62,316 nt of DNA from Gemmatimonadota bacterium (GCA_003697105.1 RFFQ01000075.1:1-62316), one strand, 5' to 3'. Shown: positions 10,440 to 62,316, counted from the stretch's first letter. The notes: a model not told the origin generated them from the letters alone. Numbers and translations are program-made.

Positions 10440-10533
<94 letters not shown>

Positions 10534-10558
10534 TATTCCTATAAAGTTTCTATCGTTT

Positions 10559-10648
10559 TGGCGGTGGGAGTAGGATTCGAACCTACGGTCGGCTCTCACC
10601 GACAACGGTTTTCAAGACCGCCGCAATAAACCACTCTGCCATCCCACC
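10559..10648 (-). tRNA. tRNA-Ser(TGA)
   Basis: Reverse complement GGTGGGATGGCAGAGTGG...CT TGA AA...long variable arm...GGTTCGAATCC...CCCACCGCCA. Confidence 0.96.
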
Positions 10649-25203: not shown

Positions 25204-25284
25204 AACTCCCCAACTCCCGAACTCCTAAACTCCCGAACTCGTCAAACTCCCCAACTCCCCAACTCCCGAACTCGTCAAACTCAC
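25204..25284. repeat. Short tandem repeat, 10 copies of an 8-9 bp AACTC(CCC/CCG/CTA/GTCA) unit
   Basis: Read directly: AACTCCCC AACTCCCG AACTCCTA AACTCCCG AACTCGTCA AACTCCCC AACTCCCC AACTCCCG AACTCGTCA AACTCAC. Confidence 0.92.
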
Positions 25285-28200
25285 TTATTCCACAACTTCC
25301 ATTTGTTGAATCAACTGTCCGACGGAAAGACCGGTTACCGGGATGGGATTCGGTAAGTGTAAGCGGAAAAGGGGTGTTCGGAGCCAAAACGGCGGGCGCA
25401 AATAAACGGACACGTTCAAAATACCCAAATTTACCCGCGAGGTAAATCGCTCAATCTTATAACCGGATTTCATCAAAGTACGGACACCCGCCAAGCTGGG
25501 GTCTTTCTGATCCGGGTCGAGAAAGAGCAGCAGGCGGTCTGCCACATGTTCCCCGATTTCTGTAATATCAAACTCACCGGACAAATCAAAATCGTGCTCA
25601 AAATCCAGCCCTTTGCCTTGGAATGCAAAATTAGTGGTCAGTAGCACTTGTTCCTTTTGCAACGAGGTGCGACCCACCAGCGCATCAAAATCCACGTTGG
25701 TGAGTTCGCCATAGGCACGATAGTGCATCTCCGGCAAGATGCCATTGGCGGTATCAAAATACATCGAACCCCATAGCTGCCCCCCATAAAGCGTCAATTC
25801 AATTTCATCCAGATAGATTACGTTATCCTCAAACCGCGCGACGACCTGAACATCATCGGCATGATAACGACCCCAGCGGATGCTGTCAATTGTTACATGG
25901 GAGCGCTCATTTTCCGGTAATTGATCGTAATACGGGGCTAAAAACCAGTAATCTGCTTCCTTCAGCTTTTGCTGGTGTGTTGCTTGCGGATAGGCGACGC
26001 GGGACAGGGGGGATTTTCTCCCTTGTACCACATCGACATCCACCACATAATGAAACGGCACGTAACCCGTTGTTTGGTGGATTGCCAGTGCCGGTGCTTG
26101 CTGAAAATAAACGGCATCCAAGCCCAAACTCCCCTCCACTTGAAACTGATTCGGCAAATTATCCCCCAGCACCTGCGGAAAATACCGGCTAAGCGTTAAT
26201 TGTAGGGCAACATTCCCCCCCAATTGCGAATCCAAAGGTAAATGTAACGGGTCATCCGCACGAGCCAGAGAAAACCGGCATAATACATCAGGATAGACCT
26301 GCTCTAAAAGCTGTTGATTGGCTGCGGAAACCCGTTCCGAGCGAGGTAGGGTCGTATCTGACAACGTCTGTAAATATCGGTCTATATTGACATTATAAAT
26401 GGTGCCCTGTAGGGAGGCATTCACCTGTTCCCGCGGAATCAAAAGTTGCCAATCGCGCAAATCGAGCAGATCACCCGGTTCTAATGCCATTGTGGCACGG
26501 AATTCTACCAGACCGGTATCTTCCAGATCACCTGCCGGCAATAGTCCGTGGATATTTTTTATCTGCGTTTCCCAGCGCAATTGTTTCTGACCCGGTTGCC
26601 AATCGAGATGAATTGAGCCGGAGATGTCTTGACACTCTACGGCGAATGTTGGATCCGCTTGCCGAACGGGTATGTGTTCCAGCTTAGCATACACCGGGTT
26701 CAGACCCAGCGTTGCCTTTAACTGGTGTGGAAGTTCCGTTAGCCCTTTTTCCGGCGTACTGCTATCAAATTGACCCTGAAATATCCATTCGGATTGGAGT
26801 TGTCCCTGAGCTGTTACCCGTAAGCCGGCAGATTCCGGTGTATGGGGCACTAAATAACGCAATTCCATTTGTGGCGTCGTACCCTGTAAGTGTAAATTTA
26901 GGTTGAATCCCGGATCGGTTTTTGAGGGGAAATGAGCGTCCACATCCCCGTATAGCTGGGTCTCCCCGTCAAACGTTTCGTAAACTGCCAACAAAGGCAA
27001 CCGGTCTGCCAGTGATAGATGATGTACCGTTAGGCTATCTATGTATAAATGTGCCTTCTCGTGCCCCCATTGATGGAGGTCTCCGGTCGCCCGCAGTTCA
27101 AGCGGTTCGGAAGCCACATTTAAATATGTTAGGTCAAGGTCGCCCCGCCATAAATTCCCTTTGATGCGGCTATTCAAGGTTACCGGCACATCTGTAAAAT
27201 CTACAACTAACGAATCTTCTTGAACCCAGGTAAAATCTGTTAAATCGGCATTTAGGTCAAGTGTGGTTTGGCGCAACAAACCCGCCAGAGATACGTCTGC
27301 ATTTAGAATACCGGTGCATTGCCGTAACGGTGAATTCAACAGGGCAACATCAAACCCCGACAAGTGAAACGTCCCATTTGCTGCCGCACGTGTGGAGTCG
27401 GCAATGTCGGTTACGGTCAATTTATCAGCGGTAAACCGCAGACCCCGCGCCCGGGCATCAAATAGGCTGAGCGATAGCATTTGCGGTTGGTAATCTGGGG
27501 TTAGGTGGATATCCACAATACCATACGCCGCCGCCGAAAATGGCGGTACTCCGGTGGTGCCCCATGACATATCATGGACCCAGAGCGAATCTAAAAACAC
27601 GGAAATATCCGTTGCATTGTGTTTAATATCGGCAAACAGATCGGCACGATAGCCGCCGATGGTGTGGCGCGTCTCTGGGGAAATAATGGTTACCGGATCA
27701 CCCTTGATCTGGGCAAACAGATCGATGTTTTCACGCGGAGACTGGAACGTCTCCCCCACCATGGTACTGACTTCCAGCGTTAGCGTGCCGGGAGTGATGG
27801 TCTGTTGCGGAGTACGAATTTCGTCGAGAGTTAGCATCGAATAAAACCACCAATTCCGCCCCCGGAACGGAAGCGCCGGGTTGGTAGAATCGACGATAAC
27901 CTGCGCGTTCAATTGCGAATCTAGGGTAATCGTGGAGACGCCGGTTTGGGTGCTCAGATGACGAAATTTCCCTTCCAAAAGCTGGCTATTGAGGGTTATC
28001 TCGAGAGGTTCATCTTCCGTTAATTGCCCTTTCATGCCGGAATCCCACACAATCAGGTCGCCCGCGAGTTCGACTGTGGGTGGAAAAAGTGCTGGGGCAA
28101 GGTGTTTTAGAGACGCCAAATTTAGTTGGCACGTTGTGACGTTCAATTCATAATGAGGAAAAGCACTGTACATCTCGCTCCATTCACCGCTCATCTGCAA

Positions 28201-51020: not shown

Positions 51021-52556
51021 TTAGACCCACAAGTCGCGGTCTAAACTGCGGTATTGAATCGCTTCACTGATATGGACGGGTTCGATTTGCGATGCACCAT
51101 CTAAATCCGCGATGGTACGCCCTACCTTCAAAATCCGGTTGTATGCCCGCGCACTTAACCCCAGATGATCGATGGCGTTTTTGAGCAATTTTTTGCTGGC
51201 TTCATCAATTTGACAATACCGTTCGATCAATTTCGGCGTCATGTGGGCATTGCAAAAGATGCCTTCGATCCCCTCAAACCGTTTCAGTTGGATTTGCCGC
51301 GTGCGATCGACCCGTTCCCGAATCCTAGCAGAGGTTTCGCCGGTCGCTTCTCCGCTGAGTTCCTTGTATTTGACTGCCGGAACTTCAATGTGCAAATCGA
51401 TCCGGTCTAGGAGCGGACCCGACACCCGCGAGATATACCGTTGAATTTGGGGAGGTGTACAACGGCATTTATTCGAGGAATCCCCGTAAAAGCCGCAGGG
51501 ACAGGGGTTCATTGCCGCCACGAGGGTAAATCGACTTGGAAAGGTGAGCGTCACCATTGCGCGGGAGATGGTCACTTGCCCATCTTCCAAAGGCTGGCGC
51601 ATGACCTCCAGCACATTGCGATTGAATTCGGGTAATTCGTCCAAAAACAGGACACCGTGATGAGCTAAACTGACCTCTCCCGGCGAGGGATACCGCCCGC
51701 CGCCGATCAAACCGGCACCTGAAATGGTATGGTGAGGAGACCGGAACGGACGCGTCGCGATGAGTGCCATGCCGCCCGGTAACAACCCGGACACCGAGTG
51801 AATCTTGGTCACTTCCAAAGCTTCATCTAGGCTCAATTGGGGCAAAATGGTCGGCACCCGACGGGCTAACATGGTTTTACCTGACCCCGGCGGTCCAATC
51901 ATAATCACGTTGTGCCCCCCCGCTGCCGCAACTTCCAATGCGCGCTTAACGTGTTGTTGTCCTTTCACATCTTGAAAATCCAGATGGTACACGGCTTTTT
52001 TTTCAAAAACCTCACTCAAATCCACGCGATGCGGTGCGATGCGAATCTCCCGATTGAGCAGTTGGATCGTTTCCAACAAGGTGTCCACCGGATAGACGCC
52101 AATATCGGGGACGAGCGCCGCTTCCGAGGCATTACCGGTGGGGACAATCAGCCCTTTGATGCCTTGCTCGCGAACTGCCACCGCAATGGAAAGGACCCCT
52201 TGTACTGGCTTAATACGCCCATCCAATGAGAGTTCACCAACCATGACGACTTTGTTCAGCGATGCCGTATCGACCTGACCCGTTGCGGCAAGGATGCTGA
52301 TCGCAATTGGCAGATCAAATGCCGCTCCAGATTTCCGTACATCTGCCGGCGCTAAATTGACCGTCACTTTATTGGGCGGAAACCGGTAGCCGCTGTTCTT
52401 GATCGCCGCCATAACACGATCCCGGCTCTCCTTGACCGCGGCATCCGGCAAACCCACCACGTCAAAACGCGGTATCTGGCTGGAAATGTCGGTTTCAACC
52501 TCAACCCCAAACCCATCAATTCCCCGAATTGAGGCGCTGAGTACTTTTGCAATCAT
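51021..52556 (-). CDS. comM: ComM/YifB Mg-chelatase-like AAA+ ATPase
   Basis: VGLPDAAVKES, NLAPAD, GPPGSGKT, RPFRSPHH, LFLDELPEF, NPCPCG, SGPLLDRID. Confidence 0.93.
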   Translation of the reverse strand: MIAKVLSASIRGIDGFGVEVETDISSQIPRFDVVGLPDAAVKESRDRVMAAIKNSGYRFPPNKVTVNLAPADVRKSGAAFDLPIAISILAATGQVDTASLNKVVMVGELSLDGRIKPVQGVLSIAVAVREQGIKGLIVPTGNASEAALVPDIGVYPVDTLLETIQLLNREIRIAPHRVDLSEVFEKKAVYHLDFQDVKGQQHVKRALEVAAAGGHNVIMIGPPGSGKTMLARRVPTILPQLSLDEALEVTKIHSVSGLLPGGMALIATRPFRSPHHTISGAGLIGGGRYPSPGEVSLAHHGVLFLDELPEFNRNVLEVMRQPLEDGQVTISRAMVTLTFPSRFTLVAAMNPCPCGFYGDSSNKCRCTPPQIQRYISRVSGPLLDRIDLHIEVPAVKYKELSGEATGETSARIRERVDRTRQIQLKRFEGIEGIFCNAHMTPKLIERYCQIDEASKKLLKNAIDHLGLSARAYNRILKVGRTIADLDGASQIEPVHISEAIQYRSLDRDLWV

Positions 52557-52563
52557 GTTCGAC

Positions 52564-53475
52564 CTATTTTGTTTCGGATGTCATTTTCTTTTTTAATACC
52601 AAAAGGCTAGCAAAACGCGGGTCAACCGTGGGAGGAATATCATTGAGGTCACCGGAAAATTCAAGCCTTTTTTCGGGACGCTTTTTGTCCGGTGTGTGGT
52701 TTGATTGGGGGGGAGAGGATTTCCGGTCTGACGTGGAATTCATCGTAGCATCATATCGCTCATGGAATTTTTGCACCGGATTCAGGGGTTCTGGGTGAAT
52801 TCGTTCTACCGTGGAATCGCTTTGGGTCGCCATTTGAGGGGAAGGGTGCGCCAATGCCCGAATGGATAAACTCAATTTTTGCCGTTTCGGGTCCACAGCC
52901 AACACCTTCACCGTCACCCGTTCCCCGATACAAACCACCTCTGCCGGATCGTGGACGTAATCTGGGGATAATTCCGAAATGTGAATTAAACCATCCCGTT
53001 TGACGCCCACATCCACAAACACACCGTAAGAGCAGATGTTTTTCACCGTGCCCTCCAACACCATGCCGGGGACGATATTCCGCAGATGGGTCGGCTGGAT
53101 CGGATTGCCCGAGGGCATCACCATAGAACCCAACTGTCCCATCTGTTTGTAAAAGATTTCCGCACTGCCACTGCGATAATAACTGCTTAGATAGGCAACC
53201 CAATACAAGATCGAGATCAGATCATCATCCGGCCGGTGAGCAAAGGCGGTCAAACCGGTGGAGTAAACCTCAAACATCTGTTGGAAATCCCGTCCATTTT
53301 CAGCCAGCGGCTGTTCCGGTTCGCTCATCGCTTGGAGAAAGCGCAAAACAAGTTCCACGTCTGGATGGGTTTCAGCGAAATGTGCCACCTGCAAAGCCGC
53401 TTGGGGGCTGACATGGTGCCGTGCTAGCTCTTCTGCCATTTGATGTGCTTTTTGCCACGTACCGGTCGTAAACAT
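52564..53475 (-). CDS. Type III-D-associated protein: helical Cas11/small-subunit-like domain fused to a Tex-type S1 RNA-binding domain
   Basis: Helical N-terminus ending ISILYWVAYL. S1 motif GMVLEGTVKNI..YGVFVDVG...DGLIHISEL. TAATG coupling to the upstream cas7. Confidence 0.7.
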   Translation of the reverse strand: MFTTGTWQKAHQMAEELARHHVSPQAALQVAHFAETHPDVELVLRFLQAMSEPEQPLAENGRDFQQMFEVYSTGLTAFAHRPDDDLISILYWVAYLSSYYRSGSAEIFYKQMGQLGSMVMPSGNPIQPTHLRNIVPGMVLEGTVKNICSYGVFVDVGVKRDGLIHISELSPDYVHDPAEVVCIGERVTVKVLAVDPKRQKLSLSIRALAHPSPQMATQSDSTVERIHPEPLNPVQKFHERYDATMNSTSDRKSSPPQSNHTPDKKRPEKRLEFSGDLNDIPPTVDPRFASLLVLKKKMTSETK

Positions 53476-54374
53476 TACGTATCCCCCTTGGGTACAAAGT
53501 GCCAGAGCTGTTGTAACTGCTTAAAAGCATCCTCAACAAGGTAAAGTTGCTTGGCGGCAAGCATCAGCGGGCGCGGGTCATTCATGACCCGGCGGGAAGG
53601 CGCCTCGTTCAAAAAATAGCGTTGCGGGTCCACCAACTGAATTTCAGCGGGTTCAAAGGCAATAACACCATATCCCATTGGCGGCGTGAGTTGGAAGGCA
53701 AAAAAAAGTAAGCCCACCTGCCCTTTGGTCAGATTTTCAAAACGGATGGAACACTGAAACCGTGCGCCCGGCAAACAGATTTCCGTGGGGATATTTCCGG
53801 CAGGAGTTGGCGTGTAGCGATAGAATAGCCGTCCATTAATTGCGTTTTGCTGACGTTCTGAAGGTGGTGGGGACGGGTTGGGGGGCAACTTCCGTATTCC
53901 CAGTTCCCCCTCATCCAAATACGCATCGGAAATCTCCAATTGCCCGCGGTAGCCTTTCGTGCCAAACAGTTGCTCCACCAAATCGAGTTGCCACCGGCGC
54001 GCCGGGTCATTGGGATGAAGAGGCAACATCCGGTTAGGGATATGCTGAATCTGGTGACGGGGAAATTGGCTCAACCCACAAGGCGAAATGGTTTCCAAGA
54101 TGGAGCGCAACAGCCCCTTAACCGCCGTACCGGGAAGGGCAACGCGACCATTCGCCCGGAAATGAGCCCGGTACAGGCGGGCAGGATCGTGTGTATCATC
54201 CATGTTCAACCGCCCATCACCTAGATGTATCGGTGCTTTGACGCGGAGATATAGCGTCAGCGAACCGTTCAAATAGCGGACGTTCAGCCGGTGATGACCG
54301 GCGGGTCGGTTCCGTCGCACCCCACCCGGTGGAAACGGAATCACATCATGGGAAGATGGTGTGGGGGGAGTCAT
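53475..54374 (-). CDS. cas7: RAMP Cas7-family protein (type III-D terminal Cas7), degenerate
   Basis: PIHLGDG, LPGTAVKGLLRSILETIS, QLFG, GRLFY, FENLT..QVGLL; G-rich loop shortened to PPMGYG. Confidence 0.8.
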   Translation of the reverse strand: MTPPTPSSHDVIPFPPGGVRRNRPAGHHRLNVRYLNGSLTLYLRVKAPIHLGDGRLNMDDTHDPARLYRAHFRANGRVALPGTAVKGLLRSILETISPCGLSQFPRHQIQHIPNRMLPLHPNDPARRWQLDLVEQLFGTKGYRGQLEISDAYLDEGELGIRKLPPNPSPPPSERQQNAINGRLFYRYTPTPAGNIPTEICLPGARFQCSIRFENLTKGQVGLLFFAFQLTPPMGYGVIAFEPAEIQLVDPQRYFLNEAPSRRVMNDPRPLMLAAKQLYLVEDAFKQLQQLWHFVPKGDT

Positions 54375-54913
54375 GCAATACCTTTCCAGCGTAGAAATTG
54401 GGTTGCCCCCGTGAAGGCATCACAATAACGGATAGCAGTCAGATAAACCTGCTCCGGTGCATCCTCTACCGGGTAGGTCAAAGTGTGGGGGATGCGCTCC
54501 GCCCGCCATCCCTGCCGTTCGGTATCGTAAATTCCCCACAAGGGGTAATTGGCAACCTGTGTACCGGTTTCCGGCAACCGGAAGCGATCCGACTGGTCCA
54601 CCATACCGGGCAGCCTCAATATGGTATCGAGAGTGGTTTTAGATTCAGTCAAAAATCGTAGGTCCAGCCGCTCCGAATCGACCCATCGCCAGTGCATCAG
54701 AACGGTTTCATTGAAGATTTCGCCAGTAGCGGCAGTCGGAATGAGCCGGATCGCATCCGCGGCAATATCCTGTTCCAAGGGACATGCTCCCGGTTGAAAT
54801 CGACAGACAAAAAGCATCGAGTTACCCAAAATGGATTTCAAATTGGCTTGTAAGTCTTGCCATGTTACTCCTGAGCCGGTTGCCACCCCGGCAAAGGTAG
54901 GTTTACTTCTCAT
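54371..54913 (-). CDS. csx19: Csx19-like type III-D subunit
   Basis: GEIFN...HWRW, YPLWG, ERIP..LTYP, RY...FLRW pattern between Cas7 genes. ATG 54913 follows GGAGG. Confidence 0.7.
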   Translation of the reverse strand: MRSKPTFAGVATGSGVTWQDLQANLKSILGNSMLFVCRFQPGACPLEQDIAADAIRLIPTAATGEIFNETVLMHWRWVDSERLDLRFLTESKTTLDTILRLPGMVDQSDRFRLPETGTQVANYPLWGIYDTERQGWRAERIPHTLTYPVEDAPEQVYLTAIRYCDAFTGATQFLRWKGIA

Positions 54914-55862
54914 TTGCGACCTCCATCCGCCAGCGCTCCACACCACATCGCCAGAGCGCCGTTTGATCAATATCATTTTGCAAAATTAGTTCTACCCCGC
55001 GCCATATATCTTCTGTATAATGTAGGTGTTCGGGCAAGGGAGTTCTATCGTCGGGTGATAAAAAATAATCCTTCGCCAAGGGGGAAAGTGCCCCCGCCCC
55101 ATATAATTGATCGGCACAGCCGATTCGCCGCCCGTTGAGCAACTCCAACTGGTCACCGTGAAGACGGCACGCCGGATACCGCAGACTGAAATGGGTGACA
55201 TCTGCCTTAATCTGCCCCAACCCGCGCGAACGCCCCGCACCTAACCGCAATTGTCCGGTTTGCAAATCGCGCAATACAATCGCCAGCAAGCCGAATTGAC
55301 CCAAGGTGAAATTTTTGAGTGTTAGCACGGTTTCAAACGAGCCTGCCATGATCACTTCAAACGCGCTTTTCGATGCTGGGATCGCCTCCCCCAACACCCG
55401 GTCGATGGCAACCGTGTGCCGATTTTCGGTAATTACCTCGGCGTTCGGATACGCATCCGCAATGCTTATCCGGCTGGCCAAATAACGATTGCCAAACAAG
55501 CGACAGGTGGTACAGGACTCGCGATAAATCTCCGTAGCAGGGGGAACCGGCGTTCCTTTGGATTTGAAAAAGGCGTTACAACTGTAGCGAGTCCCATCAC
55601 CGGTATTCCGTTCGGAGCGGTCACCCAGCGGGTTACAACTCCAGACAGCCCCTTCCAGTGTGCGGTTAATTCGTTCCACGTGTTGGCGTAACATCCCCCG
55701 CAAGCTCGTGCCGGGCAAGTAAACCACACCGCCGGTACGGACACATTGAATTTCCGGGCGGGTGGGGTCACTGCCAAATTCATTTTGTCCGCGGATCAAG
55801 AGGGGTTGCACGACCGAGATCGTTAGATCAAGCCGAAGTTCGTTCACCAGTTGGTTATGCAT
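54903..55862 (-). CDS. cas7: RAMP Cas7 (Csm3/Csx7-like)
   Basis: MHN start, YLPGTSLRG, CNPL..CTTCRLFG Zn site, VAIDR thumb, LGAGRSRGLG. Confidence 0.88.
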   Translation of the reverse strand: MHNQLVNELRLDLTISVVQPLLIRGQNEFGSDPTRPEIQCVRTGGVVYLPGTSLRGMLRQHVERINRTLEGAVWSCNPLGDRSERNTGDGTRYSCNAFFKSKGTPVPPATEIYRESCTTCRLFGNRYLASRISIADAYPNAEVITENRHTVAIDRVLGEAIPASKSAFEVIMAGSFETVLTLKNFTLGQFGLLAIVLRDLQTGQLRLGAGRSRGLGQIKADVTHFSLRYPACRLHGDQLELLNGRRIGCADQLYGAGALSPLAKDYFLSPDDRTPLPEHLHYTEDIWRGVELILQNDIDQTALWRCGVERWRMEVANEK

Positions 55863-56574
55863 CGTTTCTTCTTCTCCTTGCCACTCCGGCGATTTCCGTG
55901 TGAAAAGCGGCTAACCAGCGTTGTTCAATTTCGGCGGGAATCTCATCTGCCGGAGACCCATGTTGTAAAAAATGGAGTAGCGTCTGTGGCTGACCATCGT
56001 ATTCAAACCAGCGCCGGTCGGTCACATCCAATTTGACCCGTCCCAGCCCCCGATTTTTGAATCCGCCCAACGTTAGCTCACCTCGTTTTAGGGCATGGAG
56101 TCCCACCAGCAACAGTCCGAACTGTGCATCTTTCAGATTTTCCGCCACCAACCGGAAGCTAAACACCGTTTCCGGGGGTACTATCTCGTATTGATAACGG
56201 CTGTTCGGGATCATCGTTCGCGTATGCCGGTGAACTGAGAGACCTTGTCGCAAATGAATGCCGGCAGTGCCGGTTTCGGTCACCAGCGGCAGGTCATCAA
56301 TTTGAACACGTCCGGCAAGGTGACGGGCGCCAAACACCGGCTCAAGCCATGATGCGGTCTCATCCGTACCAAGTAAGGTCTCCAGAATGGCTGCCAGATG
56401 GGCACGCAAGGCACCTTTGACGGTTGACCCGGGGATGAACGGCTGACCGAGGGCATTGCGCAGGAGTGGCGCACCGTTGTGTAATGCCACCATTTGTGCC
56501 GAACCAATGCGAATCGCGGTCACGGTTCGTAACGTACCTTCCAGCCAGAGTTGGTTTTGCAGGGTGTCGCTCAT
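55855..56574 (-). CDS. cas7: RAMP Cas7 (Csm3/Csx7-like); catalytic Asp and Zn site apparently lost
   Basis: IRIG, PFIPGSTVKGALR, VFG...GRV, thumb LSVHR, LGGFKNRGLG. Confidence 0.88.
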   Translation of the reverse strand: MSDTLQNQLWLEGTLRTVTAIRIGSAQMVALHNGAPLLRNALGQPFIPGSTVKGALRAHLAAILETLLGTDETASWLEPVFGARHLAGRVQIDDLPLVTETGTAGIHLRQGLSVHRHTRTMIPNSRYQYEIVPPETVFSFRLVAENLKDAQFGLLLVGLHALKRGELTLGGFKNRGLGRVKLDVTDRRWFEYDGQPQTLLHFLQHGSPADEIPAEIEQRWLAAFHTEIAGVARRRRNDA

Positions 56575-57104
56575 CTGGGATGACCTTCCGCCGATTTTTT
56601 CCGGTGCCGAGACCGCCGCTTACCAGAGGCAAAGACCAGATTATCCCAATCCTGAGTGGTATGCCCGTACACAAAACAGCGGTAAACATAACCTAGATAG
56701 AGCTGGGTAAGACGCAAATGCAGTTCACGCCGGTAGAGCGACAGATTCGCACCCGCAAGATGTTGGCGGGCATACGCCAGCACGCCCTCTACGGCTTGAA
56801 ATACAGCGCCCTCACGATGTTCCACATCATAAATGATCCACTCGCCAAAACTGTTGTGACGCCACCCACGATGACCCACTGCTTGCCCGATGTAATAACG
56901 CACATTGTTAGTAATCGCCTCGATACTGGAGGTAGTTTGCGCCACGTTCAGCAATTGTTGGAGATGTTCCGGTTGGATAATGTGGTCATCCCGCAACTTT
57001 TTGGCACAGCGCCCTGCCGCCTGAATGATCGCGTCCAATTGAGCATCAATACCGCGCTGAAAAATAAGTTCTCGTCTGAGGCGACGTTCCTGATCCGTTT
57101 GCAT
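56571..57104 (-). CDS. cas11: Cas11/Csm2-like small subunit
   Basis: All-helical; QQLLNVA...ITNNVRYYIG...W...LYLGY pattern. ATG 57104 follows GGAGG (track start 57200). Confidence 0.75.
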   Translation of the reverse strand: MQTDQERRLRRELIFQRGIDAQLDAIIQAAGRCAKKLRDDHIIQPEHLQQLLNVAQTTSSIEAITNNVRYYIGQAVGHRGWRHNSFGEWIIYDVEHREGAVFQAVEGVLAYARQHLAGANLSLYRRELHLRLTQLYLGYVYRCFVYGHTTQDWDNLVFASGKRRSRHRKKSAEGHPR

Positions 57105-58089
57105 GGTTTTCCTCCGGCTCCGCGAATACGTGCATCTCGGAGCAGATTTTAATCTGACCAAACCCTTCTGCAGTGCGTTCCCCCAACCCGTCCCGTTCAA
57201 TAGCCGTTAAGACCGGGATCAGCGTTGCCGGGTCACTGGCGGTACGGCAGAGATAACAACTCCCCATCTGGGCAATCACCGTGGTCGGGCGTGGTAATCC
57301 CCACGCGCCGTTCCATCCACCTTGATAACCGTGCTGTACTTCCGCCCAAACGACCGTTACGCGCCCCTCACCCCAAATTCGATTTAATTCGGTTTGAGGA
57401 TTGAGCGTGGGGCACCGATCGGGGGTTTGAAAAATGGCATTTGATTGCAGATCAAGGGTAAAATAAACATCATGAGAATCCGATTTGAATCGATCCGGTA
57501 AATGCCGGTTGAATTGCTCCAATCGATCCGCAACATCCATTTGGGGAGGGGGATCAACCGCTTCGATAGTTACCTGACCAAAACCGCGTGTTTTCCCCGC
57601 TCCGACTGTGGTGATCTTTTGGAGCCATTCCGAGACCGGCAACTCGGACGAAATCGCGGTAAAAAAGGTTGTGGGCTGGAATTGCTGGTCTTGCCACTGG
57701 ACTTCCGAGATCACCGGCCGGCCGAGATAACGGGTATCCACAAAAACCGGAATCAATTGCTCTTGCTGGAGATACCCATAGCGGGTCAAGGGCGGTGCAT
57801 TTCTCCCGTTCGCAAAAGGAGTTTGCGGATCATAACCCCGCGAGATTCGGGGTCTCACCGGTAATGGAATAACCTCACTCCAGTGCGACCGGTGCGCTAG
57901 ATAGGCATTGCGGAAAATCACCGGCGATTCCGTGCCACACAACGCCTGAAATAGCGGGTCATCGGCAGAGATGCCCTCCTCGTGCAACAAATGATACGCC
58001 AAAGCGCCTCGCAAAACCGCTCCAGGGATATAGTCCGGATCGACCGCTACGGGAGATAACGCCGTAATGCGGTAAAAATGCGTGATCAT
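57046..58089 (-). CDS. csx10: Csx10-like RAMP (Cas5 group, type III-D)
   Basis: ITALSP, DYIPGAVLRGALA, VIFRNA, VGAGKTRGFG, GGWNGAWGLPR, GSC, GLGERTAEGFG. ATG 58089 overlaps the upstream TGA. Confidence 0.85.
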   Translation of the reverse strand: MITHFYRITALSPVAVDPDYIPGAVLRGALAYHLLHEEGISADDPLFQALCGTESPVIFRNAYLAHRSHWSEVIPLPVRPRISRGYDPQTPFANGRNAPPLTRYGYLQQEQLIPVFVDTRYLGRPVISEVQWQDQQFQPTTFFTAISSELPVSEWLQKITTVGAGKTRGFGQVTIEAVDPPPQMDVADRLEQFNRHLPDRFKSDSHDVYFTLDLQSNAIFQTPDRCPTLNPQTELNRIWGEGRVTVVWAEVQHGYQGGWNGAWGLPRPTTVIAQMGSCYLCRTASDPATLIPVLTAIERDGLGERTAEGFGQIKICSEMHVFAEPEENHANGSGTSPQTRTYFSARY

Positions 58090-58628
58090 GGCACCTCCAC
58101 TTGTGGATTGGCAGGCATACCATCCATAAAAGCATGTGCTTGAACCGTTACCCGTCCTACCCCGCGCGAACGGCTTCCGCCGAGATGATGAATGTGGCGC
58201 AAACTCAACAACAACCATGCTAAATCCTGTTCCGCGGATGATGCCGGTAGATACCCTTCAATGGCACGAGGATGCGCCGCCACACCGCCGGGCGCATCCA
58301 GCACCGGGATGGCAAAGAATCCTGACGGCAAAGGAGTGCCCGTCTGCCGGTCTAGCGCCAAACCGAAACGCGGCTGAACCTCCCCTGCATTCACGATCAT
58401 ATCATGATACCGCAAGTGACACGGTGCTTTCGCCGATCCCACGAGCCGGCAAATCACCCCCTGACCGGTACCGGAAATCGTCTGCAAAATACGGGTTAGA
58501 TGGTACCGGACCTGCCGTTTTAAGAGTGCACCGGGCACAATCACTTGTCCCCGTCCATTACGCGCCGTTGGCGGGAGTGCCAGCGCATGCTCAATCTGGA
58601 GCGTCACGTCAATATGAATAGAGCGCAT
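58086..58628 (-). CDS. cas7: RAMP Cas7 (Csm3-like), shortened and degenerate
   Basis: RN..GQVIVPGALLK, ICRLVG, GLALDRQTG thumb, LGGSRSRGVG; AAGGAG RBS. Confidence 0.8.
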   Translation of the reverse strand: MRSIHIDVTLQIEHALALPPTARNGRGQVIVPGALLKRQVRYHLTRILQTISGTGQGVICRLVGSAKAPCHLRYHDMIVNAGEVQPRFGLALDRQTGTPLPSGFFAIPVLDAPGGVAAHPRAIEGYLPASSAEQDLAWLLLSLRHIHHLGGSRSRGVGRVTVQAHAFMDGMPANPQVEVP

Positions 58629-58711
58629 CCGTCTCTCCTTAGTTTCAGATGGATCGGGTTGAACATATTTCTGTCTCCGCTATATTAACATATTCGGATG
58701 CCCTTTTCACA

Positions 58712-60850
58712 TTAACCATACACCGCCACCGCACGGTGGTCTTCCAGAGACAGCAACTCCATGACATCCGCTAAGGGGGTATAGTAATGCTCATCATCGC
58801 TGTTGAGCCACGGGGGCGTCAGAAAATCCCATTGATGCTCAAAAGCGTCTCCCCACACTGCCGGTAGCAAAGGTTGTTCGGCGGATTTTGCGGTACGCCA
58901 GGTTAAATACGCCAGAATTGCCGGCAAAAATCCCTGTTTTAGACTGGCTTGCAACTGGTATATTTCTGGTGCAGAGCATCCAATCTGTTGGAATCCGCGC
59001 AGGGCGTGCAACAGCCCTTCCAGCTCCGCTACGGTGTACGGTGCGCCGGTTAGATGGTACGTGCAGGTATCCGTTTCAGGATGGACGGTACGTTCGATGT
59101 CTCGCCAGTGGGTCAACTGGTGTGTTAGGGGAGTACCCGGTGACCTGAATACACGAAAATCGATCACACTAAGGCAATACCCCCCTTTCCGATACAATGT
59201 TGCCTGATAATTTGCCGCGGAATACGTCAATTGATCCAGTTGGTGGCGGATGATCGGGGGGGGTGTTTTTAACGACGTGAACAGAACGCCGGCATTTAGG
59301 GTAACTGCCGGTAGCGTTCGGTGGTCACAACGCGCCGGTAGATAGCGCTGAACCGGCATACTCACTGGATTTTCCACCTCGTATTGAAAGGCGGCTTCCA
59401 GATGTTCTGTAAAGGCGTGGGTTATACTCAAGGCGTGAACCGCTGGTAACATCAACAGGATTTCATCTTGGTTTAACACCAACACTTCAAACGGATGAAC
59501 CTCCCCCACCGGATGAAGATAACGGACGATACTTTGAAAGACAGCTTCTTGGACAGCAGATTGTACCTGCGCGGCACCGCACGGTATTGCTACCAAGGAT
59601 TCCGCCGGTAGGTCAACCTGAATTTTGGCACGGACAAATCCCACTAGAGATGTGCCCAGTTCTGCCGGTGTCGCTAAAAATCGGAGACTATCGAGAGGCA
59701 CATCGCCCACATACTGTTTTTGCGCCGCCGAATGCGTCTGCAAAAACGTCACAAACTCGGTCTGCCATGACGGGGTAAATGGAGGATGCCAATTGAGCGT
59801 GGGTTGCCATTTTGCCGGGTAGTCCAAATATGCCTGCTGGCGAGCACATACTTCGCACAAGTGCTGGTGCCGGTAGGACACAAGGGAAGGGCGCAAGTTG
59901 CACACCTCACAGCGCTGAACGTAAGGAAAAAGTTCAAAATGCGGCACCGGACGATCCCAAGCATCGGGGCGGTGCCGGAGCCGCTCTAAATGCGTAATCA
60001 CATAAGAAAACCCGCCGGGTATGCGGGTCGAATGCGGTTCTGCTTTGTGCCATACTTCCGTTAATGAGAATGGCGCGGCGGTAATGATGTAAGGCAGGGT
60101 CAGCGTCTCTGCCAAGATCGATGTTTCAATTTGAGAGGGCAAACTGGCCAGTTGGGAGACCGGTAAAAGGGCAATTTGGGTTATTCCACTGGAGATCACA
60201 CATTCTGGACAGGCGGAAAACCGAGCCTGAACGTGTTGGAACGCACTATCCAACATTCGGGACGCCCCGCAAATGGAGGCAACGGACGTACCCTCAAAAC
60301 GGAAATCCTCAGGATATTGAAAACTGCCATACATCACCCCAATTCGGGCATTTATCGCCTGCGGAAATGCGGGGTCCAAAAGCGCCCCGTGTACCGTTAA
60401 TAAAGGTCGGGCAAAGGGCTCTACTTGGGTGAAAAACTCGTCAAGCGACTGCCCCGCCGTTAGAACACCGCTATGTTGCTGTTCTAAAAGGGCATGTACA
60501 TACTGGAGCCGGGTGAATTGCGCAGGGGATAAGACCCGCTCTGAAAGCAAATGGCGAGTGCGGGACGGTAGCCCGTAGCTCAACGCCGCAAACCGCAGCA
60601 ATGGCAATTCTACCGGTTCGAGCAAATCATACCCTAAACAATACGTGAGTGCCGAAAAGCAACAAAGCCGGCTTGCGACAACTTGGGCATGGGAATCGTG
60701 TGAGGGAAGTGTTCGATATAATGAGATAAGACGATGGCAAACATCGGAAAGATGAAAGGGTTGCTCTGGTTCAATCAGACCAACGTGTATTTGGCGCAAT
60801 TCAGATAAAAAATGTAAGCCAGCCCCGCCCGGAAAATGATCCGCTGACAT
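58712..60850 (-). CDS. cas10: Cas10-like large subunit, catalytically degenerate (no HD, GGDD replaced by NQDE)
   Basis: Palm1 ICGASRMLD, Zn finger CEVCNLR...LCEVC, HPFEVLVLNQDEILL, LNAGV, IDF, APYT. ATG 60850 follows GAGGA and lies downstream of the promoter (track start 60916). Confidence 0.8.
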   Translation of the reverse strand: MSADHFPGGAGLHFLSELRQIHVGLIEPEQPFHLSDVCHRLISLYRTLPSHDSHAQVVASRLCCFSALTYCLGYDLLEPVELPLLRFAALSYGLPSRTRHLLSERVLSPAQFTRLQYVHALLEQQHSGVLTAGQSLDEFFTQVEPFARPLLTVHGALLDPAFPQAINARIGVMYGSFQYPEDFRFEGTSVASICGASRMLDSAFQHVQARFSACPECVISSGITQIALLPVSQLASLPSQIETSILAETLTLPYIITAAPFSLTEVWHKAEPHSTRIPGGFSYVITHLERLRHRPDAWDRPVPHFELFPYVQRCEVCNLRPSLVSYRHQHLCEVCARQQAYLDYPAKWQPTLNWHPPFTPSWQTEFVTFLQTHSAAQKQYVGDVPLDSLRFLATPAELGTSLVGFVRAKIQVDLPAESLVAIPCGAAQVQSAVQEAVFQSIVRYLHPVGEVHPFEVLVLNQDEILLMLPAVHALSITHAFTEHLEAAFQYEVENPVSMPVQRYLPARCDHRTLPAVTLNAGVLFTSLKTPPPIIRHQLDQLTYSAANYQATLYRKGGYCLSVIDFRVFRSPGTPLTHQLTHWRDIERTVHPETDTCTYHLTGAPYTVAELEGLLHALRGFQQIGCSAPEIYQLQASLKQGFLPAILAYLTWRTAKSAEQPLLPAVWGDAFEHQWDFLTPPWLNSDDEHYYTPLADVMELLSLEDHRAVAVYG

Positions 60851-60894
60851 CCGCCGTCCTCTTAATGACTTAAGGGTTTGATCGATAGATTTGT

Positions 60895-60923
60895 ACTCTA
60901 TCATAGCCCTCAGCAAAAGTCAA
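60895..60923 (-). promoter_or_regulatory. Putative sigma70 promoter of the cas operon
   Basis: TTGACT(60923-60918)-17 bp-TAGAGT(60900-60895) with TG extension. Confidence 0.65.
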
Positions 60924-61153: not shown

Positions 61154-62316
61154 ATGGACAACCGTAGCATCATAAAGCCTTTAATTGAGGGGTTCAGCTC
61201 AGAGAGATTGAGCAACCTCCTGCGCCGGATCGCCCCTGCTTTCCGGCCGGATACCAAGCTATTAGACGATTTTATCCAGGATGATTGGCCTTTTGATTCC
61301 GCACAAAAGCTAGGCGTCATCGAACTTCCGGGGTCTCAAACTATCCTGGTGGGCGTTGTTCATGTGGCGCGCGAACTGACTTCCCGCTCCAGCAAGAAGA
61401 CGCAGTACGAATTAGGCAAGCGCATCCTCAAGGCTTACAACAGTAACGGCGGCATCTTCGCTTTCTACGATGACAATGGACGCTTCCGTCTTTCCCTCAT
61501 CACCGTCACCTACTCCGGCACCCGCCGACAGTTCAGCACCTTCCGGCGCTACACCTTTTTCGTTGAGCCGGAGCTGCCCAACAAGACGTTTATCAACCAG
61601 ATCGGCCGGGCGGATTTTTCCAGCCTGGAGCAGATTCTGGAAGCCTTCTCCCTGGAAGTGGTCTCCGACGCCTTTTATCAGGAGTTTAAGCCCAAATTCG
61701 ATGCCATTGCCGCGGCAGTACAAGGAGCGAATGACGCAGCTTTGCAACAAGATTTCGCCTTGTTGTTTGCCATCCGGGTCATCTTCCTGGGATTTGTCCA
61801 AAAGAAAGGCTGGCTGGGGGACAACCCGAGCTTTTTACAAGACTTCTGGCAGGAATATCAGAATAGCAACCCGTCCGCAAATACCTTCTACAAGGATTGG
61901 CTGGAGCCGCTCTTCTTTGAAGCCCTCAACTCCCCACCCGGACGCAAGGTGGCTTATGGTAACGCACCCTTCTGCCAGAAGACCCAGACTGCCCTGCAAA
62001 TGGCACCTTATCTCAACGGCGAACTCTTCAAGCACAAGCAAGGCGTCGATGACCAGAGCCTATGGCTTCCCGATGACCTGATCGGCGACTTTTTCGACTT
62101 TCTCTTCCAGTACAACTTCACCGTGGAAGAAAACGAACTCTACGACGAGGAACTGGAACTCAATCCCGAATTCCTGGGCATCATCTTCGAGCGGCTGACC
62201 AATATGGACCAGGGTGCAGTTTACACCCCGCGCGTGGAAGTGGACTTGATGTGCCGTCTGGCTCTGGTGCAGTGGCTGGCGCAAAGCACCGACATTGATA
62301 AGCGCGACCTGTACCA
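61154..62316 (+). CDS. Type IIG / Eco57I-like restriction-modification protein, N-terminal part (runs off the window)
   Basis: Manually translated open frame from ATG 61154: MDNRSII...FRLSLI...RRYTFFV...EAFSLE...FY...RVIFLGFVQKKGWL...PYLNGELF...YNFTVEE...NPEFLGIIFE...GAVYTPR. Absent from the ORF track because it has no stop in the window. Confidence 0.8.
   Translation, partial: MDNRSIIKPLIEGFSSERLSNLLRRIAPAFRPDTKLLDDFIQDDWPFDSAQKLGVIELPGSQTILVGVVHVARELTSRSSKKTQYELGKRILKAYNSNGGIFAFYDDNGRFRLSLITVTYSGTRRQFSTFRRYTFFVEPELPNKTFINQIGRADFSSLEQILEAFSLEVVSDAFYQEFKPKFDAIAAAVQGANDAALQQDFALLFAIRVIFLGFVQKKGWLGDNPSFLQDFWQEYQNSNPSANTFYKDWLEPLFFEALNSPPGRKVAYGNAPFCQKTQTALQMAPYLNGELFKHKQGVDDQSLWLPDDLIGDFFDFLFQYNFTVEENELYDEELELNPEFLGIIFERLTNMDQGAVYTPRVEVDLMCRLALVQWLAQSTDIDKRDLY

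Follow-up and report, generated by a model that had tools for sequence, protein, structure and literature searches.

Type III CRISPR systems are thought to need at least one of three activities for protection, namely signalling by Cas10, DNA cutting by the Cas10 HD nuclease and RNA cutting by Cas7, and the described reductive subtypes (III-C, III-G, III-H, III-E, III-I and VII) each retain or gain one activity. Here we describe a nine-gene type III-D operon, cas10 to csx21 on the minus strand, in whose predicted proteins the Cas10 palm, the HD signature and two of the three Cas7 cleavage sites are replaced, and the third Cas7 site is altered to Glu. The operon lies in a stretch of 62,316 nt from a Gemmatimonadota bacterium (GCA_003697105.1, RFFQ01000075.1:1-62316; hereafter the window), which is one whole contig (C145) of a metagenome-assembled genome (MAG) of 4.18 Mb in 199 contigs, estimated to be 96.9% complete. 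On balance we lean towards reading the operon as a reductively evolved III-D variant acting as a CRISPR RNA (crRNA)-guided RNA binder.

The III-Dv complex cuts RNA at three sites, via D26 of Cas7-Cas5-Cas11, D33 of Cas7-2x.1 and D246 of Cas7-2x.2, the Cas7-insertion subunit not being among the cleavage sites, and makes cyclic oligoadenylate (cOA), which activates Csx1 (PMC11026444). Canonical bacterial III-D systems (cyanobacteria, Chloroflexota, Poribacteria and the III-Dv of structure 8s9t) share with the window operon their gene order, their subunits and csx10, csx19 and csx21, and the likeness to III-Dv extends to the Cas10 fold, nearest to 8s9t_C, and to the window Cas7 paralogs, nearest to Cas7-2x. 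They differ in keeping GGDD and all three Cas7 Asp residues, and in that the window operon has no adjacent CARF gene.

The closest parallels to the window operon are III-G and III-H, where the Cas10 palm is likewise inactivated, the Cas7 catalytic Asp is lost (at window site 3 the change is only from Asp to Glu) and there is no adaptation module. An array is missing from III-G loci, which are believed to use crRNAs borrowed in trans; CARF effectors are gone from III-G and III-H loci, and the HD nuclease of both is apparently active, with DNA cutting predicted (PMC12669027). In contrast, the window Cas10 has no HD signature, and the operon keeps the full III-D set where reduced or other subunits occur in III-G and III-H (Csx26; a single Cas7 type; a fused or replaced Cas11). 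III-E (Cas7-11), III-I and type VII are also III-D-derived, with Cas10 signalling lost or degenerate (PMC12669027; PMC10910872), but these have kept or gained an effector activity (the Cas7-11 RNase with the Csx29 protease; the Cas14 beta-CASP nuclease). About 97% of Cas10 proteins are predicted to be active (PMC12669027). In the literature covered, with supplements lying outside the search, we found no III-D module in which palm, HD and Cas7 sites are all lost; such members may already be present in PMC12669027, whose Cas10 tree comes with an "inactive PALM" ring and data files.

A sequence-only reading of the window had described nine intact open reading frames (ORFs) in III-D order, which is borne out by ORF calls, profile matches and reference loci. 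The nine successive minus-strand ORFs occupy 52564-60916 and contain no internal stops; counted from the cas10 ATG at 60850 to the end of csx21 at 52564, they total 2,757 codons without a stop. The gene order on the minus strand is cas10-cas7-csx10-cas11-cas7-cas7-csx19-cas7-csx21, with the following features:

60895..60923, minus strand: promoter-like site (TTGACT, 17-nt spacer, TAGAGT, with TG upstream; 9/12 matches)
58712..60850, minus strand: cas10, 712 amino acids (aa) from the ATG at 60850; PADLOC PDLC00919, E 5.9e-11
58086..58628, minus strand: cas7 paralog 1 (cas7a, short RAMP), 180 aa; PF03787, E 8e-5
57046..58089, minus strand: csx10 (Cas5 of III-D), 347 aa from the ATG at 58089; TIGR02674, E 1.4e-40
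56571..57104, minus strand: cas11 (small subunit of III-D), starting at ATG 57104; PADLOC Csm2/III-D small subunit, E 9.1e-23 and 8.9e-21
55855..56574, minus strand: cas7 paralog 2 (cas7b, Csx7 type), 239 aa; TIGR02581, E 9.2e-31
54903..55862, minus strand: cas7 paralog 3 (cas7c, Csx7 type), 319 aa; TIGR02581, E 1.4e-25
54371..54976, minus strand: csx19, 201 aa (180 aa if started at ATG 54913); PADLOC PDLC01034, E 2e-9
53475..54374, minus strand: cas7 paralog 4 (cas7d, TIGR03986-like), 299 aa; TIGR03986, E 1.2e-16
52564..53475, minus strand: csx21, 303 aa; PF00575 (S1), E 2.5e-19

The best PADLOC and NCBIfam matches of the operon are III-D models, with Cas7_IIIg/h and Cas5_IIIh far lower. Two NCBIfam matches fall under the curated cut-offs of their models: csx10 scores 139.7 bits against TIGR02674 (cut-off 177.3), and matches PADLOC Cas5_IIId at E 3.8e-41, and csx19 matches TIGR03984 at E 0.0036. 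For comparison, 80 reference III-D loci were collected by a contig scan with a GGDD-containing pattern from cyanobacteria, Chloroflexota, Poribacteria and others. The window gene order is collinear with all 80, and the complete pattern is present in 53 of them; most of the remaining 27 end early at contig ends. By its predicted proteins and their order, the operon is a genuine, complete III-D effector module with the canonical nine-gene layout, in which family profile searches found no replacement nuclease. The coupling of its genes also stands as earlier described, with ATGA overlaps at three junctions (cas7a/csx10, cas11/cas7b and csx19/cas7d), overlaps of 8 nt at cas7b/cas7c and 1 nt at cas7d/csx21, and a GAGGA ribosome-binding site between the promoter-like site and the cas10 ATG. 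The near-consensus promoter proposed at the same time has to be put more cautiously: promoter-like sites number 16 in the region versus 10.3 +/- 3.3 in shuffles, which is no enrichment, and the TTGACT-17-TAGAGT site is only consistent with a promoter role.

The Cas10 protein is divergent. Its PADLOC match spans residues 450-596, it has no Pfam match and no PDB sequence match, and a word-based protein search returned only the protein itself and one relative at 24% identity. A HMMER scan of 1.84 billion representatives recovered 189 Cas10 relatives at E <= 0.001, among which the sole close one is P0003, at 31% identity. Alignment A1 joined the query to 34 of its 38 best relatives, omitting the shorter proteins P0009, P0019 and P0033 as well as P0037 (681 aa); PF22335 is found on 32 of the 35 aligned sequences. 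An AlphaFold2 model built from A1 (predicted local distance difference test score, pLDDT, 84.9; predicted template modelling score, pTM, 0.88) gave as its top Foldseek matches 8s9t_C, the Synechocystis III-Dv Cas10 (E 4.6e-14), followed by 8bmw_K, the Sulfolobus solfataricus III-D Cas10 (E 9.9e-11). The predicted Cas10 fold is intact in the window protein, and the CxxC...CxxC zinc finger is retained. As judged from these comparisons, the operon belongs to a rare, divergent III-D sub-lineage.

Within this intact fold the palm motifs are gone. Palm-2 carries IYADGNN and GGDD in 32 of the 34 relatives in A1, the exceptions being P0003 (HVK and GYDS) and P0039 (DADG), and reads RAKIQ and NQDE in the query, such that the first metal-binding Asp is changed to Lys and both Gly residues of GGDD are replaced. 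All three palm-1 motifs (GGATKIK, LPEIRG and YANGG) are replaced as well. In a set gathered without any motif requirement (the query and 149 representatives), GGDD is present in 142 of 150 Cas10 proteins and missing from eight. Columns at least 90% conserved among the 149 representatives are retained at 17 of 27 positions, and seven of the ten losses fall in the two palm-2 motifs. The HD-like positions, D-H ... H-[DE], read S-R ... Y-G in the query; P0003 retains both motifs. The HD nuclease had been counted among the apparent losses, and its signature is indeed missing, but it is commonly missing across the Cas10 family, a minority of which holds it (His at the first site in 29 of the 41 sequences with a residue at that position, at the second in 30 of 76).

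Since the Asp-to-Lys change is common to the query and P0003, both of them full length, with the GGDD of P0003 degenerate (GYDS), the palm was probably lost before these two lineages diverged to 31% identity. In a tree of 128 sequences (the members of the 150-protein set with 450 aa or more) the two form a clade with support of 0.998, nested among GGDD holders. Degenerate GGDD motifs were also seen in P0039, P0054, P0056, P0088, P0126 and P0138 (DADG, RGDG, GGDH, GSDD twice and NNDG), five of which branch at a distance from the query; the tree does not include P0138, a fragment of 347 aa. Going by these six scattered cases, the Cas10 palm seems to have been lost repeatedly in the family.

Cas7 paralogs 1, 2, 3 and 4 correspond to the Cas7 domain of III-Dv Cas7-Cas5-Cas11, Cas7-2x.1, Cas7-2x.2 and Cas7-insertion, respectively; the cleavage sites of paralogs 2 and 3 were mapped by HMMER alignments to 8s9t_D, and the D26 site of paralog 1 by position only. 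Site 1, in paralog 1, is Asp in 58 of 60 positional orthologs and Leu in the query. This protein has also undergone deletions of an 11-residue G-rich loop and of a Cys-rich insertion of approximately 35 residues, and retains 15 of 47 (32%) columns that are at least 90% conserved. At site 2, in paralog 2, 58 of 59 positional orthologs have Asp; the query has Gly, and in it the second Asp of the D-LPV-x-K-D motif is changed to Asn. Site 3, at position 37 of paralog 3, is more variable (D in 48 of 60 orthologs, N in 7, Q in 3, A in 1 and E in 1), and the query has Glu37, the neighbouring conserved Glu39 being changed to Gln. In the HMMER alignments the III-Dv Asp residues fall opposite Pro36 and Pro33, 1-4 residues ahead of Glu37; we take Glu37 as the catalytic position because it lies directly before a beta-strand, as does the Asp in the other paralogs, and because HMMER pairs it with the Asp of D-S-I-L-K-D in 8bmw_H. 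The nearest relative of paralog 3, P0154 (53% identity, from a 1,180-bp contig), keeps the Asp and has in common with the query a 4-residue deletion and E39Q. Paralog 4 was compared in an alignment with 58 orthologs.

Among the remaining subunits, csx10 retains 39 of 63 conserved columns, and cas11 retains 9 of 12, with the changes N51Q, Q72Y and R75Q; comparison of the cas11 sequence and profile with PDB chains gave no match, so that these three changes are unplaced on the III-Dv catalytic arginines. The sequence-only reading had proposed catalytic loss across several subunits with structural motifs kept. The first part holds for palm-1, palm-2, the HD-like positions and Cas7 sites 1 and 2, and is less clear for site 3, where Asp is only exchanged for Glu; the second agrees with the alignments and the Cas10 model, the losses centring on catalytic motifs.

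The ninth gene, earlier taken for a Cas11-like protein with an S1 domain, is not novel. Based on profile searches and position, it is Csx21 in divergent form. Csx21 is already known as an accessory of III-D and appears under "Type III-D associated" in PMC6546367. The query matches two PADLOC Csx21 profiles at E 0.0019 and 0.003. Its relatives by phmmer in the two nearest Chloroflexota loci, L007 and L010, match PADLOC Csx21 at E 1.9e-32 and 2.6e-25. A jackhmmer search found Csx21 in 55 reference loci, and of the 53 loci that reach far enough, 51 have it within 1.5 kb past the final cas7; the family alignment includes both domains. An AlphaFold2 model (pLDDT 73.6) comprises a helical N-domain (residues ~1-117), an S1 RNA-binding domain (~135-210; Z 14.8 to Tex), a disordered tail and a terminal helix. 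The sole non-S1 match among the top 50 for this model is 8bmw_A (Z 9.5, root-mean-square deviation 3.6, 100 residues), a match that falls below the caution level for helical bundles. Chain A of 8bmw is presumably Cas11, going by the stoichiometry and chain letters in PMC9945777, and the likeness of the modelled Csx21 N-domain to it is no more than suggestive. As a Cas11 at the sequence level the N-domain was rejected, as hhalign against the family's Cas11 gave a probability of 0.5%. A word-based search with the N-domain returned only the protein itself, an atlas search gave no usable match, and in a predicted complex of cas7 paralog 4, Cas11 and the Csx21 N-domain one control scored nearly as high. 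Next after csx21 come CARF genes in L007 and L010 but yifB in the window, which fits loss of signalling. Both loci also carry an extra gene between the last cas7 and csx21 (L007:16022-17185, 388 aa; L010:17974-19092, 373 aa; no PADLOC match) that is missing from the window.

No CRISPR array was found in the window, and whole-genome family searches for Cas1, Cas6 and Csx1 matched only other contigs (no separate cas2 search was made in the window). The operon had on these grounds been called array-less, which is true of the window only. Another contig of the same MAG, C156:1-3694 (3.7 kb, broken at both ends), carries cas6 (Cas6d-like), a cas4-cas1 fusion, cas2 and a CRISPR array with a leader of ~200 nt and three 36-nt repeats that runs past the contig edge. 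In reverse complement the repeat has ATTGAAAC at its end, which we take to be the usual 8-nt handle after Cas6 processing, and its build (GTTTC, hairpin, CTGAC) is the same as that of the repeats beside the III-D loci L086 and L056. A truncated 150-aa ORF upstream on the same contig has no PADLOC or NCBIfam match. Array-like repeats are missing from 27 of the 42 reference III-D loci of at least 19 kb, and most type III loci rely on Cas6 supplied in trans (PMC12669027). A local lack of array, cas1, cas2 and cas6 is thus normal among catalytically intact III-D relatives. The absence noted in the 62 kb is correct in itself for array, cas1 and cas6.

One further candidate array, C85:3930-4111, was rejected, as its 32-nt "repeat" and palindromic "spacer" recur at C88:100-180 and C7:16767-16850; it belongs to a dispersed element made up of a 32-nt unit, with ATTGAAAC at its end, and an adjoining perfect palindrome. 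Other repeat clusters at contig ends proved to be coding or low-complexity tandem repeats and were likewise rejected.

The genome contains other type III genes. Contig C13 (192-3120) holds WYL, Csx1 (CARF-HEPN, E 1.1e-103) and a RAMP gene interrupted by the contig end, and contig C153 (3-959) opens within a Cmr6 gene. Between these two contigs there is probably an unassembled III-B core, in which an active Cas10 could lie. At C48:16533-20007, Cmr1-Cmr6-Cmr4-Cmr5 (PADLOC; type III-B/C) make up a second incomplete module of type III, with no cas10 or cmr3 alongside and flanked by ATP-grasp-like, deacetylase/glycosyltransferase-like and secreted protein ORFs. No second Cas10 was found in the assembled contigs of the MAG.

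On its 3' side, after a 7-nt gap, the operon is followed by yifB, rluA, gldA/F/G, murA and rho. Upstream of cas10 and divergent from it lies a type IIG restriction-modification gene (61154-62314, plus strand; PADLOC E 9.1e-17), of which the contig end leaves only the N-terminal part. The operon region 52000-60000 has a G+C content of 0.52-0.54, compared with 0.44-0.53 over most of the contig; this somewhat raised value is compatible with acquisition by transfer. Elsewhere in the window, a short tandem repeat with periods of 8, 16 and 33 nt (AACTCCCC-like) at 25204-25297 adjoins the start of a 1,295-aa ORF, and two tRNA genes lie at 10445-10648.

For a crRNA-guided RNA binder, the expected mode of action would be as follows. 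The complex would still assemble on crRNAs made elsewhere in the genome and would bind complementary RNA, synthesizing no cOA and cutting no DNA; it would cut target RNA at one site at most. It would act by binding or sequestering transcripts, and the S1 domain of Csx21, or a partner yet to be recognised, may assist. A stricter version, in which the operon is a natural "dead Csm" kept by selection, a full III-D complex with neither cOA synthesis, HD DNase nor Cas7 RNase that uses borrowed crRNAs, we regard as possible but tentative; here transcripts would be silenced or sequestered, perhaps with the involvement of the Csx21 S1 domain.

The sequence-only reading had attributed the pattern to selection, not random decay, and retention is what the pattern favours, given the intact coupled ORFs, the palm loss shared with P0003, the clustering of losses in catalytic motifs and a low ratio of non-synonymous to synonymous polymorphism (pN/pS). 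The last comes from two hot-spring metagenome runs of one study, whose contigs span the operon without indels; a third run, X3, covers only scraps of it. These contigs show 10 single-base differences in all, of which five are synonymous, four non-synonymous and one upstream of the ATG, giving a pN/pS of ~0.26 (one-sided binomial p 0.043), a test that comprises nine sites from two runs that are maybe the assembly's source and hence not independent.

That limit is one of several points that weigh against a retained, binding-only effector. In each of the six subunit trees the terminal branch of the query is the longest, which fits relaxed selection too, as does the small share of conserved columns left in cas7 paralog 1. 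A Cas10 search over 61 genomes, its own included, matched only the window's genome; the phylum comprises three species representatives, and the other two have no match to cas7 paralog 3. With the operon in one genome only, no cross-ortholog ratio of non-synonymous to synonymous substitutions (dN/dS) is possible. A metagenome contig scan with the alignment of P0001 and P0003 yielded no relatives among 139 pattern matches. As the 80 reference loci were fetched by their GGDD, they are unusable for the frequency of palm loss. The C156 array is tied to the operon by repeat type alone, a presumed link, and both assembly of the complex and crRNA loading are steps that we infer. Finally, Glu37 of cas7 paralog 3 might still support catalysis, and the retained Asp-Glu of NQDE might still permit some catalysis. 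The proposal draws on one MAG and two distant sister proteins, and is to be taken as a lead, not a demonstrated class.

The long branches, the eroded cas7 paralog 1 without its G-rich loop and Cys-rich insertion, and the confinement to one genome would all suit a decaying remnant, in which selection is relaxed while other type III genes (the further Cmr genes and Csx1 of this genome) do the work, the ORFs being not yet broken and the complex functionless. We consider this unlikely, although it is the alternative that survives best. Nine ORFs without a stop and with preserved start/stop overlaps argue against it, as do the lack of indels in the two runs and, more weakly, the pN/pS from nine sites. 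Palm loss shared with P0003 at just 31% identity, both proteins being full length, also speaks against decay, and the losses cluster in catalytic motifs with most other conserved columns retained in proteins of which the Cas10 model folds at high confidence.

The operon could alternatively encode an ordinary active III-D effector with non-canonical residues, in which Glu37 cuts RNA, the Asp-Glu of NQDE does nucleotide chemistry, or both. The exchange at site 3 is conservative, and this site varies with GGDD intact (Glu in 1 of 60 orthologs; N, Q or A in 11 of 60); in addition, the third residue of the GGDD motif is still Asp and the fourth is Glu. Against this, Lys stands in place of the first metal ligand of palm-2, neither Gly of GGDD is kept, palm-1 has lost its motifs, and Leu and Gly occupy Cas7 sites 1 and 2; nor does a CARF gene follow csx21, unlike in L007 and L010. 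We regard an active effector as quite unlikely, a step behind decay. Least probable by our estimate is an exapted, non-defence ribonucleoprotein working without crRNAs (guide-independent, with other trans guides, or as a decoy), the preference of the sequence-only reading, which could appeal to a 62-kb contig with no array, cas6 or adaptation gene, to apparent alteration of every recognised catalytic centre (site 3 only from Asp to Glu) and to the housekeeping genes yifB and rluA directly downstream, but to which no result points. Against it, cas6, cas4-cas1, cas2 and an array with a repeat like those beside active III-D loci are present in the genome, most catalytically intact relatives likewise have no local array, the type IIG neighbour fits a defence setting, and no candidate alternative guide was found.

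Type IV is a binding-only CRISPR effector. V-C and V-M are nuclease-dead systems in which guide-directed binding still interferes (PMC12669027), and in this they resemble the crRNA-guided RNA binder proposed here; all of these, however, are DNA binders of other types, whereas the present case would be a binding-only type III system. The proposal is easily tested: the operon is 8.3 kb long, and its own genome supplies a candidate cas6 and repeat. If true, it would provide a naturally inert, multi-subunit, programmable RNA binder, and would extend binding-only interference to RNA-targeting class 1 effectors.

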